64,000 bases of DNA from Escherichia coli. GTDB taxonomy: Bacteria > Pseudomonadota > Gammaproteobacteria > Enterobacterales > Enterobacteriaceae. A model generated the notes under the pieces. It was not told the DNA's origin. It did no database searches and was given only the letters and a program-made list of their open reading frames with translations. The stretch lies in NCBI RefSeq assembly GCF_003018255.1, contig NZ_CP027440.1; one strand, 5' to 3'. The first letter of the stretch is position 1. Each line of letters starts with the position of its first letter. Below are positions 4,689 to 9,464 of this stretch, piece by piece. A program made the translations under genes and the position numbers.

Positions 4689-5678
4689 TTAAGCGTCAAC
4701 GAAACCGGTGATTTGAGAGACGCGAGAAAGATCGATATTGCCGCCGGAAATAATACTGACGGTTTTTCTGTTTTGAATATATTGGTCTAATTTACCGCTT
4801 AATAATGCAGCACATGCCAGAGCGCCTGCGCCTTCGGTGACGACTTTATTGCGCTGAATTAAGGCAATCATACTGTTTCTGATTTCATCTTCGCTGACCA
4901 GCACGATGTCATCGACTAATTCACGAACGATTTCGTAAGTTAAATTACCCGGGCGGGAGACATCACAACCATCCGCCAGGGTGCCGGTAGTTCGGTGCGT
5001 GGTTATTTCTCCGGAGTGGAAAGAAGCCGCCATGCCGTGAACGTTTTCAGACTGTACGCCAATAACACGAATGGTCGGGTTAATTGATTTAATCGCTACC
5101 GCAATACCAGCAATTAAACCGCCACCGCCAATTGGCACAATCACATTATCGACATCATAGAGATCTTCCATAATTTCCAGACCAATCGTTCCCTGGCCAG
5201 CAATCACTTTCGGATCATCGTAAGGTGGGATAAAAATACGGCCTTCCATTTCGACAATTTCGCTCACTTTAGCAATAGTGTCGTTGAAGTTATCACCATG
5301 CAAAACGACTTCTGCGGAGTAGTCGCACGTTGCCGCGACTTTGGATTTCGGCGCACCTTTTGGCATCACCACTTTACCGTCAATACCCAGCATCGCACAG
5401 GAGAGCGAAACCCCTTGCGCATGGTTGCCCGCAGAGCAGGCCACTACACCTTTACGTTTTTCCGCATCAGTCAGTGAACTTAATTTATTAAATGCGCCAC
5501 GAATTTTAAATGAACCGGTACGCTGCATGTTTTCGAATTTGAGGAATATTTCACCTTTGCAACGTTCACTAAAATAGTTGGAGCGAGGCATACCTGTTTT
5601 ATAAATTCGCCCAGCCAGTCGTTGTTTTGCTTCAATGATGTCATCAATAGCAACCGGGAGATCGTATGTAATATGCAT
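4689..5678 (-). CDS. tdcB: catabolic threonine dehydratase (PLP-dependent)
   Basis: 329-aa ORF with the PLP lysine motif SFKIRGA; operon position. Confidence 0.93.
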
Positions 5679-5776: not shown

Positions 5777-6715
5777 CTAATCAACTTCAATTAATTGCCT
5801 TCGTCTACACCCATTATAAGATGAATACTCTTTGGCTAATTCCACCAAAACCGATGCTGCTTTTTTAATACGATAATTTTTCGACCATACCGCGGCATAT
5901 TGTGCCACAGGTAATGTTTCTTCAACCGGAATAGTAATAAATTGATTAGAACCAAAAGGTGATGTCATATCACAAGGAATTACAGTTAAGAAATCAGCAT
6001 TGAGAACAAGATTATAAATTGTCACGACTGAGTCGGTTTTAACGATGTTTTCAATACTGATGCCATTTCTTTGTAACGTAGTAAGCAGCTCGCTGTAGTA
6101 CCCCATATTGGTTTGTGGCAACACCCACTGTTCGTTCTTCAACGACTCCAGCGTGGTGGTGCCGGTGCATGTTCGGGACTTACTGGCTACCAGCACAAAC
6201 TCGGACTCGAACAGCGGCTCAACATGTAAATCCTGAAGCTTCATTTCTGCGCTTAACGTACCAATCGCAAAATCCAGTCGACCGTCGCGGATTGCCGGTA
6301 AGAACGAAGACAGTTGCGCTTCATACATAGAAACCTGCGCTTTCGGGAACACCTCTTTGAACTTGTTGATCATCCCGGACATAAAAGTAAAACCAATCAA
6401 TGAAGGAAAACCAAATGAGACTTCCACCACCGCCTCAGAAGACATACCGCTTATCTCATTAACCATATTTTTCATTTCACGGGTAATGGATTCGGAACGG
6501 GAGAGTAACAATTGACCGGCAGGTGTTAATGTTACACCGGTATTTTTCCGCACCACTAACTCCACACCAAAATAATCTTCAATATCGTTAATGATTTTAC
6601 TGACGGCCGGTTGAGTTAACCCTAACTCTTTTGCAGCCGAGCCGATAGAACCACTTCTAATAACTTCCTGAAAGACTACCAGGTGCTGCGTTTTCGGAAG
6701 AAGAATAGTGCTCAT
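5777..6715 (-). CDS. tdcA: LysR-family transcriptional activator of the tdc operon
   Basis: 312-aa ORF with an N-terminal HTH (LTQPAVSKIINDIEDYFGVELV) typical of LysR regulators; first gene of the tdc operon. Confidence 0.92.
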   Translation of the reverse strand: MSTILLPKTQHLVVFQEVIRSGSIGSAAKELGLTQPAVSKIINDIEDYFGVELVVRKNTGVTLTPAGQLLLSRSESITREMKNMVNEISGMSSEAVVEVSFGFPSLIGFTFMSGMINKFKEVFPKAQVSMYEAQLSSFLPAIRDGRLDFAIGTLSAEMKLQDLHVEPLFESEFVLVASKSRTCTGTTTLESLKNEQWVLPQTNMGYYSELLTTLQRNGISIENIVKTDSVVTIYNLVLNADFLTVIPCDMTSPFGSNQFITIPVEETLPVAQYAAVWSKNYRIKKAASVLVELAKEYSSYNGCRRRQLIEVD

Positions 6716-6891
6716 AACGACCTACGTTAATTACCTCATTGACGGCATGAAGTGTATCAAAATGAAATGAACAGGATATGTGCGACCACTCACAAATTAA
6801 CTTTCAATACTTTCCAGGGTATCGTTATTACAATTAAATATCTTTATATATCAATGAGTTAAAGTATAAAAATCAGCATAAACCCTGATTT
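6716..6891. promoter_or_regulatory. tdcA-tdcR divergent control region (tdc operon promoter; CRP/IHF-dependent in K-12)
   Basis: AT-rich intergenic DNA between the divergent tdcA and tdcR frames; individual sites not resolved by eye. Confidence 0.5.
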
Positions 6892-7029
6892 TTGTCAAAA
6901 AAAATGACGGGGATAACCATATTTTATGGCGATAACATCATTCGTTATGTGGTTAATACAAAAAAGGGGCTGAGACCATATTTCAAGCAATTACCGGATA
7001 ATTACCAGGCAAAATTTGAGTTAAATTTA

Positions 7030-7248
7030 ATGAGCAAGTTCTCAAATTTTATTATAAATAAATCATTTTCAGTGATAAATAATGCGGCACGTCACATTTT
7101 TTCACGCTATTTGTTGGAGAACAAACATTTATTTTATCAATATTTTAAAATTTCGAATACAGGTATCGATCATCTCGAACAATTGATTAACGTCAACTTT
7201 TTCTCTTCTGACAGGACGTCATTTTGTGAATGCAATCGTTTTCCATAA
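7030..7248 (+). CDS. tdcR: small tdc operon regulatory protein, 72 aa
   Basis: ORF 6892..7248 contains an internal ATG at 7030 giving the 72-aa product MSKFSNFIINKSFSV...; divergent from tdcA. Confidence 0.7.
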   Translation: MSKFSNFIINKSFSVINNAARHIFSRYLLENKHLFYQYFKISNTGIDHLEQLINVNFFSSDRTSFCECNRFP

Positions 7249-7769
7249 ATTCCTCTCCCCTCATAGGCGACGAATAGCATTTTGTGTTGAGGATCACAAA
7301 ACGAATAATTGCTGGTCGCCGCGATAAGGTCAGACGAAGACAACAAGGGGGATTCTCACTGTGCTTTACATCAGCGTAGGCCATAGAATGTTGCTTCGTT
7401 GACTGTAATGCCGGGTAAATGAGCATTTTTTGATAGTGCGAAAGAACCCTGCGAGGAAAATAAGCATCTATTATTGTTTGTCATGATGACAAGGCAGGCA
7501 TCAATGAAAGGCTTCCCAATTGCACATATTTTTCACCCTTCAATCCCGCCAATGCACGCAGTGGTTAACAATCACAACAGAAATATTGATTATTGGACGG
7601 TAAAAATTTAGGTTATAACGCCCAAATGATTCAACGATCGGACAATACCTGCGAACTTACAATTAATGAGAGAAATATATGTATAATTACGACCTTTTAA
7701 ATGCAATATAGACTTAATAACTTCTTACAAAGTCTATTATTAATACCGTAGATATTCATCTTACCCTGG

Positions 7770-7805
7770 GCACCAAAAGCAAAAACCCGCCGAAGCGGGT
7801 TTTTA
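7770..7805 (-). terminator. rho-independent terminator downstream of rnpB
   Basis: Plus strand aaaaacccgccgaagcgggttttt: GC stem with TTCG-type loop, T-run on the minus strand directly 3' of the rnpB end. Confidence 0.8.
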
Positions 7806-7813
7806 CGTAAATC

Positions 7814-8190
<377 letters not shown>

Positions 8191-8197
8191 GGCGCGC

Positions 8198-8226
8198 AGT
8201 ATAGAGGGTTTGCGCGCCCTTGTCAC
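8198..8226 (-). promoter_or_regulatory. rnpB sigma70 promoter
   Basis: Minus strand reads GTGACA - 17 nt - TATACT - 7 nt - G(+1); the -35 hexamer (8221..8226) overlaps the garK stop codon (8223..8225). Confidence 0.75.
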
Positions 8227-9368
8227 CCCGCGTTGCGCATTCCAATCGCCAGTGTCGCGGCGATATTACGTGAAGCACGGCAGATATTGTCATAAGCTCC
8301 GCGGAATGCTTCGTCTAACGTACCAATGCTGGTCAATACGCTGAAGACCGCATCAATGCCATGCTGATGTACAACGCCAACATCATTGGTCAGGCTACCC
8401 GCAATGCCAATCACCGGTTTATGGTACTTTTTCGCCACGTTTGCGACGCCAATCGGAACCTTGCCGTGAATACTCTGGCTGTCAATACGCCCTTCACCGG
8501 TGATCACCAGCGTACAATCGTGAATATGTTCCTCCAGATTCAGCGCCGTAGTGACGATTTCAATACCACTTTTCAGTTCTGCACCAAGAAACGCCATCAG
8601 CGCCGCGCCCATACCACCCGCAGCTCCTGCGCCGGGGACATCTTTCACATCAACATGCAGCGCTTTTTTAATGACATCGGCATAGTGAGAGAGGTTATTG
8701 TCCAGCTCGACAATCATCGCTTCACTGGCTCCCTTTTGTGGGCCAAAGATGCGCGATGCGCCGTTATCGCCCACCAGCGGATTGGTGACATCACAAGCGA
8801 CGCGAATGACGCAATCTTTTAAGCGCGGATCGAGGCCGGAAATATCAATATCATTCAGAGTATTAAGACTACCGCCGCCAAAACCAATTTCATTGCCGTT
8901 GGCGTCGCATAATTTCGCCCCCAGCGCCTGTACCATGCCTGCGCCGCCATCATTTGTAGCGCTGCCGCCAATGCCGATAATAATGTTTGTTGCACCGCTC
9001 TCCAGCGCCTGCAGGATTAACTCGCCTGTGCCGCGTGAAGTGGTCACGAGTGGATCGCGTTTTTCCGCAGGTACCAGCTCCAGCCCACTGGCCGCCGCCA
9101 TTTCAATAAATGCGGTTTTGCCATCGCCGGAGATCCCCCAACTGGCATCCACTTTCTCGCCCAGCGGCCCTGTAACCCAGGCGTGACGTTCAGAACCCTG
9201 GGTAGCTGCAATCATCGCTTCCACCGTTCCTTCGCCACCATCGGCAACCGGAACAGAAACGTACTGTGCATCAGGAAAAATTTCCCGAAATCCTTTTTCT
9301 ATCGCCTGCGCAACCTCGCTGGCAGATAAACTTTCTTTATAAGAGTCTGGGGCGATTACGATTTTCAT
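8223..9368 (-). CDS. garK: glycerate 2-kinase
   Basis: ORF track 8223..9449; N-terminus MKIVIAPDSYKESLSASEVAQAIE (glycerate kinase family); start trimmed to the ATG at 9368. Confidence 0.9.
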   Translation of the reverse strand: MKIVIAPDSYKESLSASEVAQAIEKGFREIFPDAQYVSVPVADGGEGTVEAMIAATQGSERHAWVTGPLGEKVDASWGISGDGKTAFIEMAAASGLELVPAEKRDPLVTTSRGTGELILQALESGATNIIIGIGGSATNDGGAGMVQALGAKLCDANGNEIGFGGGSLNTLNDIDISGLDPRLKDCVIRVACDVTNPLVGDNGASRIFGPQKGASEAMIVELDNNLSHYADVIKKALHVDVKDVPGAGAAGGMGAALMAFLGAELKSGIEIVTTALNLEEHIHDCTLVITGEGRIDSQSIHGKVPIGVANVAKKYHKPVIGIAGSLTNDVGVVHQHGIDAVFSVLTSIGTLDEAFRGAYDNICRASRNIAATLAIGMRNAG

Positions 9369-9464
9369 ACCTATGCCTGTTACCACATGACGCCGGAGGG
9401 CGTTTCTCTTATTCGGCCTGGATTCCAGGCCCGGATTGCAATACGCCATCCGGGCACGACGTCA

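Follow-up and report, generated by a model that had tools for sequence, protein, structure and literature searches.

The locus analysed here lies in a stretch of 64,000 nucleotides from Escherichia coli contig NZ_CP027440.1, which as a whole is called the window below. The genes tdcB, tdcA and tdcR stand on one side of the spacer under study, and rnpB and garK on the other (Table 1). TdcR scored 171.5 bits against its NCBIfam model NF008507 (cut-off 100) over profile positions 1-72 of 72, shares 96% amino-acid identity with K-12 TdcR, and was placed identically by PGAP in NZ_CP116067, a record identical to the window. rnpB matched Rfam RF00010 over model positions 1-367 of 367 with 319.7 bits (gathering threshold 100 bits). 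From the tdcR stop codon to the 3' end of rnpB the spacer spans 565 bp (7249-7813, 40% GC), the length that the initial annotation had reported. It had also correctly placed yhaB and yhaC between tdcR and rnpB in K-12, where the MG1655 reference locus (NZ_CM151407, L001 in the coordinates below) has a spacer of 2,617 bp with 37% GC that contains yhaB (540 bp) and yhaC (1,188 bp). At the two sides of the spacer, the tdcR frame extends upstream to a TTG at 6892 (118 aa, vs 72 aa as annotated from the ATG at 7030), and the garK frame (8223-9449) is open for 408 aa, vs 381 aa annotated.

Table 1. Features of the tdcB-garK region in the window.
Feature	Position	Strand	Basis
tdcB	4689-5678	minus	
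tdcA	5777-6715	minus	
tdcR, 72 aa, left edge of spacer	7030-7248	plus	NCBIfam NF008507 equivalog; stop codon 7246-7248
tdcR-yhaB intergenic region, collinear with K-12	7249-7503	no strand	blastn
Truncated yhaB ORF, 35 codons and stop	7504-7611	plus	tblastn, direct reading
Deletion junction 1	7606-7607	no strand	three-way alignment
Internal yhaC fragment, codons 91-111	7607-7669	plus	blastn, tblastn
Deletion junction 2	7668-7669	no strand	three-way alignment
yhaC final 42 nt	7670-7711	plus	blastn
Stretch downstream of yhaC with degenerate repeat tail	7712-7772	no strand	blastn; tail by eye
rnpB intrinsic terminator hairpin	7779-7806	minus	terminator scan
rnpB, RNase P RNA class A, right edge of spacer	7814-8190	minus	Rfam RF00010
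garK	from 8223	minus	

Comparison with K-12 by blastn revealed that all 565 bp of the spacer are K-12-homologous sequence, arranged in four collinear pieces on the same strand and between the same neighbours, tdcR and rnpB (E-values from 1e-23 to 0). The first piece, window 6700-7606, corresponds to L001 4001-4907 with 97.1% identity and extends 103 nt into yhaB; with the spacer as query, its spacer part (7249-7606 against L001 4550-4907) is gap-free and 95.3% identical. The second, 7607-7669, is internal yhaC sequence (L001 5635-5697, 93.7%), and the third, 7668-7802, comprises the final 44 nt of yhaC and sequence downstream of it (L001 6510-6648, 90.6%), within which 7712-7772 is collinear with L001 6554-6618. 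The fourth, 7773-8300, carries the terminator, rnpB and garK sequence (L001 7126-7653, 99.6%). Remnants of yhaB and yhaC thus stand in their original order, on the same strand and between the same flanking genes, which is the arrangement looked for in a deletion scar.

At the protein level, yhaB codons 1-34 are kept at 7504-7606 with 100% amino-acid identity to K-12 YhaB (tblastn). The reading frame that begins there consists of these 34 codons followed by a single new ATT codon and a TAG stop, both created by the first junction, so that this 35-codon frame, which had been counted among short and low-complexity ORFs, is the beginning of a known gene. Codons 91-111 of yhaC are recovered at 7607-7669 with 95% amino-acid identity (tblastn), out of frame with the yhaB remnant; this island is 96.8% identical to yhaC of strain BS-01 (blastn). 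The surviving TAG stop of yhaC, whose K-12 end is at L001 6553, is found at 7709-7711 within the last 42 nt of the gene. The statement that yhaB and yhaC are missing therefore holds for intact genes and fails for their sequence, as three pieces (7504-7606, 7607-7669 and 7670-7711) are retained, and yhaB/yhaC-homologous sequence is detected inside 7249-7813 by both blastn and tblastn, the outcome that the initial annotation had itself named as refuting its claim.

Neither gene persists as a member of its family. Full-length yhaB (~179 aa) is absent from the window, where tblastn found just residues 1-34, and the remnant is a truncated pseudogene and not a member gene. The YhaC family (NCBIfam NF007262) is defined by a protein of ~395 aa scoring above 765 bits (K-12 YhaC reaches 887 bits), while what is left in the window is codons 91-111 and the final 13 codons with the stop, and no single frame with a start codon connects these pieces. 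RefSeq already flags the two larger remnants as partial pseudogenes: in NZ_CP116067 the PGAP annotation has a partial CDS 'missing C-terminus' at 7504-7605, as it also does in UTI89, and a partial CDS without both termini at 7608-7670.

To resolve the breakpoints, the window and the two K-12 flanks were placed in one three-way alignment. The first deletion took out 727 bp, which in K-12 run from codon 35 of yhaB to nt 269 of yhaC, and joined L001 4907 to 5635; this junction (7606|7607) is blunt, with 0 nt shared between the flanks. The second removed 812 bp within yhaC and joined L001 5697 to 6510, with 2 nt (GA) of microhomology. Short direct repeats, which the initial annotation had proposed to look for at the junction in an alignment with MG1655, were found at neither of the two. 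Both sit in unique sequence inside yhaB/yhaC, outside repeats, and no IS element and no extra DNA were observed at either, so an IS-mediated deletion is not indicated there. A third loss, ~513 bp in all, comprises a REP-like segment and tandem 113-bp copies of the rnpB 3' end.

In K-12 the region of this third loss consists of a degenerate repeat copy broken by the REP-like segment and then 3.5 tandem 113-bp units with 96% matches (L001 6797-7189), each unit being a copy of the rnpB 3' end with its terminator. Tandem repeats 3' of K-12 rnpB were reportedly described by Reed and Altman in the early 1980s. Taking at least one extra head-to-tail 113-bp copy beside rnpB as the mark of a repeat array, the window has none: TRF gave 0 arrays in 7200-8300, and the repeat consensus matched only the native rnpB 3' end. 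The terminator itself is intact, with a T tail after a 12-pair stem that contains 6 GC pairs (terminator scan), and its stretch is 100% identical to L001 7126-7166 (blastn). Just upstream of it, the stretch 7712-7772 ends in a degenerate repeat-unit tail, ATTCATCT TACCCTGGGCACCAAAAGC, whose likeness to the consensus tail CATCTTTCTGCCCCTCCAAAAGC was judged by eye. In the window, where the corresponding stretch is 7773-7863, the single unit has the 8-mer ATTCATCT at each end (about 7752 and 7856). The number of extra 113-bp copies is 3 in K-12, ~1 in strains BS-01 and E-1246, 1-3 in other Escherichia species (at least one in every non-coli Escherichia examined), and none in the window and UTI89. 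The direction of the copy-number change is not proven, as extra copies are likewise lacking in Citrobacter (sp. MGH106) and Salmonella arizonae.

The compact allele is widespread among E. coli. Among 5,426 complete E. coli genomes, 1,061 matched a 161-bp query across both junctions as a single piece, and 70-bp queries for each junction alone (match required over at least 80% of query length) detected junction 1 in 1,061 genomes and junction 2 in 1,059; no single-deletion intermediate was seen among the 5,426 genomes with these separate queries. At least 80% of K-12 yhaB-yhaC is kept in 4,302 of them (79%), with 93-100% identity. The locus of the two genes (L001 4805-6553) is unusually polymorphic for a chromosomal one, with identities from 100% down to ~93% and 1,170 records in the 90-95% band. 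The ~60 leftover genomes hold other states, among them LR-48 (L070 3945-4954), where yhaB breaks off after ~99 codons and is immediately followed by an IS1B transposase gene and then rnpB, with yhaC gone. Carriers of the compact allele include UTI89 (NC_007946) and an O25b:H4-ST131 strain, both of which we take to belong to phylogroup B2. Most of the nearest relatives of the window, which are 99.7-100% identical to it over 2.7 kb, are isolates from poultry or APEC; they include O78:H4 strains, presumably ST117 of phylogroup G.

Between the window and UTI89 the spacer has the same structure and 98.4% identity, with 8 substitutions and one 1-nt indel, but divergence in the adjacent tdcR and garK is 3.2-3.5%, which implies that the allele is old relative to the split of the two backgrounds or was moved by recombination. 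Divergence along the locus is uneven (tdcA 0.4%, the tdcA-tdcR intergenic region at 6716-7029 4.5%, tdcR 3.2%, rnpB 0%, and garK at 8223-9368 3.5%), a pattern compatible with recombination patches around it.

To place the deletion in a wider frame, TdcA-anchored loci from species-representative genomes were collected, and TdcR, YhaB, YhaC, rnpB and GarK were mapped on each. In Citrobacter and Salmonella, where tdcA and rnpB were both on the fetched stretch, the gap between them is usually ~0.7-0.8 kb, with several loci of 2-5 kb; no yhaBC was detected at these loci, and usually no tdcR. Six non-coli Escherichia genomes (E. whittamii, E. albertii, MOD1-EC7003, E1V33, and two records labelled E. 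coli whose TdcR is just 69-76% identical to that of K-12) have tdcR and spacers of 236-594 bp without intact yhaBC. Their breakpoints (E. albertii in L008, the others in L004-L007 and L016) differ from those of the window: four of the six lose the match to E. coli 62-65 nt after tdcR, while MOD1-EC7003 keeps 176 nt and a weak 53-bp yhaC-like stretch. E. albertii NBRC 107761 (L008 7177-7293) has a yhaB 5' remnant of its own with 54% amino-acid and 73% nucleotide identity, which corresponds to K-12 spacer positions 270-400 and reaches past junction 1 of the window. From these states it follows that yhaB, at least, is older than E. coli and was lost several times independently. Three contigs with labels from distant taxa also carried an enterobacterial tdcA: L003 (CAUHML010000178.1, an 'uncultured Bacteroides' MAG, with a TdcA 100% identical to K-12 and both yhaB and yhaC present), L037 (CACSKA010000005.1, 'Chryseobacterium sp. 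18061') and L062 (URUZ01000051.1, 'uncultured Clostridium'), which suggests bin contamination or mislabelling.

The window state is best explained by deletion, because an empty insertion site cannot hold internal fragments of the genes, and we consider it very probable that the 565-bp spacer is the deletion scar of yhaB-yhaC. Of the two origins offered by the initial annotation, a deletion in this lineage is thus the one borne out by the ordered, collinear remnants of both genes, and its account as a whole is partly confirmed in observation and partly supported in interpretation.

A broader reading takes the tdcR-rnpB interval as a site of recurrent loss, with the loss of this fast-evolving, AT-rich gene pair favoured in some niches including those of extra-intestinal pathogenic B2 and poultry lineages. 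At least four or five yhaBC losses may be counted for it, namely the double deletion described here, the IS1-associated loss in LR-48, and those in E. albertii, in MOD1-EC7003 and in the group breaking 62-65 nt after tdcR; we hold selection of this kind to be improbable.

The opposite polarity, which takes the compact spacer as the ancestral state and yhaB-yhaC as a horizontally acquired insertion of the K-12 lineage or of most E. coli, would agree with the AT-richness of yhaBC and its surroundings (the low GC of the K-12 spacer), the lack of a Pfam family for either gene, their young phylostratigraphic stratum (PMC12218254), and the lack of intact yhaBC between tdcA or tdcR and rnpB in the six non-coli Escherichia, Citrobacter and Salmonella. 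It is nevertheless very unlikely: the start of yhaB, an internal part of yhaC and the end of yhaC are kept in the right order and orientation, which an empty site would lack, and an origin of these pieces by chance matching is disfavoured by their E-values, which in a single pairwise search range from 1e-23 to 1e-52. The idea of an insertion specific to the K-12 strain is further contradicted by the presence of yhaBC in more than three quarters of E. coli genomes, as counted above, and by the truncated yhaB of E. albertii with its other breakpoint. A gain of yhaBC in an Escherichia ancestor could still have taken place; this is a separate claim, and it would not make the window state ancestral.

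It was also considered whether the remnants are kept for a new role, either as a 35-residue YhaB-derived peptide or in regulation or termination between the convergent tdcR and rnpB. The upstream region and start codon of yhaB are intact, the 34 codons are identical to K-12 in protein sequence, and the yhaC island is unchanged between the window and UTI89. However, the yhaB remnants of the window and UTI89 are separated by three substitutions, of which two are nonsynonymous (codons 5 and 16, Pro to Ser in both; codons read by hand), and an island of 63 bp is too short for the lack of differences to be telling at ~2% divergence. In a search for hidden RNA genes with Rfam at gathering and permissive thresholds, rnpB was the only match above threshold in the region, the others being terminator-driven look-alikes far below it, and promoter-like sites were not enriched (3 found vs 1.8 ± 1.3 in shuffled sequence). 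The remnants thus appear unconstrained and probably lack function, and a new role is very unlikely. Finally, an assembly artefact, by collapse of the repeat-rich rnpB 3' region in one genome, can practically be dismissed, since the 3.5 tandem repeats and REP-like segment of K-12 could collapse in short-read assemblies but identical junctions recur across 1,061 complete genomes obtained independently, the finished reference of UTI89 among them, and junctions 1 and 2 fall in unique sequence and not in repeats.

Returning to the deletion scar, the following history may be proposed. The ancestor of the lineage of the window would have had a K-12-like arrangement, tdcR-yhaB-yhaC-rnpB. Two illegitimate-recombination deletions, the blunt one of 727 bp and the one of 812 bp with GA microhomology, would then have taken most of the gene pair, leaving yhaB codons 1-34, the 63-bp yhaC island and the last 42 nt of yhaC. 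Because no single-deletion intermediate was observed, two events and one complex event are not distinguishable. The loss of the extra 113-bp copies and the REP-like segment most likely arose by unequal recombination within the array. We infer that the allele was fixed before the poultry-associated clade of the window split from the clade of UTI89 and ST131, and that the remnants have been drifting since as non-functional DNA. The yhaC pieces differ from K-12 by 6-10%, more than the flanks do, a difference that may go back to a parental allele already divergent and not to decay following the deletion.

What was lost has been listed as a young operon of unknown function in a phylostratigraphic study (PMC12218254). 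For the K-12 proteins YhaB and YhaC no Pfam family was obtained, and PADLOC and PDB sequence searches gave nothing usable; YhaC matched only its own NCBIfam equivalog. K-12 YhaB (L001 4805-5344) showed a sub-threshold match to the KEOPS kinase Bud32 model TIGR03724 (16.5 bits, E 0.0044, residues 24-149), and a match to MkoA of 11 bits, far below the cut-off. The faint resemblance to Bud32 hints that yhaBC could be a signalling or conflict module. In the literature naming yhaB and yhaC together nothing on the deletion polymorphism was found, and a separate search gave no paper with both rnpB and tdcR.

The compact spacer is an ordinary lineage-specific variant present in about one in five sequenced E. 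coli (~20%); it opens no long-standing question and matters little in itself. For annotation, the ORF at 7504 should be read as a yhaB pseudogene remnant in B2 and related E. coli, and a second remnant as deriving from yhaC. As a lineage marker, the common junctions identify the B2-type clade cleanly. The two K-12 'y-genes' are dispensable and were lost repeatedly, which speaks mildly for their being accessory, and this repeated independent loss across Escherichia is the one mildly notable aspect of the locus.

Compared with known loci, the window shares with K-12 MG1655 the genes tdcB, tdcA, tdcR / rnpB, garK, garR in the same order and orientation, with an identity that we summarize as 95-99.6% wherever sequence is kept, whereas in K-12 yhaB (179 aa) and yhaC (395 aa) are intact, and the REP-like segment and 3 extra 113-bp copies are present. 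With respect to the K-12 rnpB 3'-flank repeats in particular, the window has the native copy and a degenerate unit tail upstream of the terminator, in contrast to the 3 extra copies of K-12 and the 1-3 of other Escherichia. LR-48 resembles the window in its truncated yhaB and absent yhaC between tdcR and rnpB but has another breakpoint with IS1B at the junction, while the window is without IS and its junctions are blunt or share 2 nt. The compact allele of UTI89 and 1,060 other complete genomes has the structure of the window; UTI89 has identical junctions and two RefSeq partial pseudogene CDS at equivalent positions, and differs in its tdcR and garK flanks to an extent (3.2-3.5%) that indicates another genetic background.
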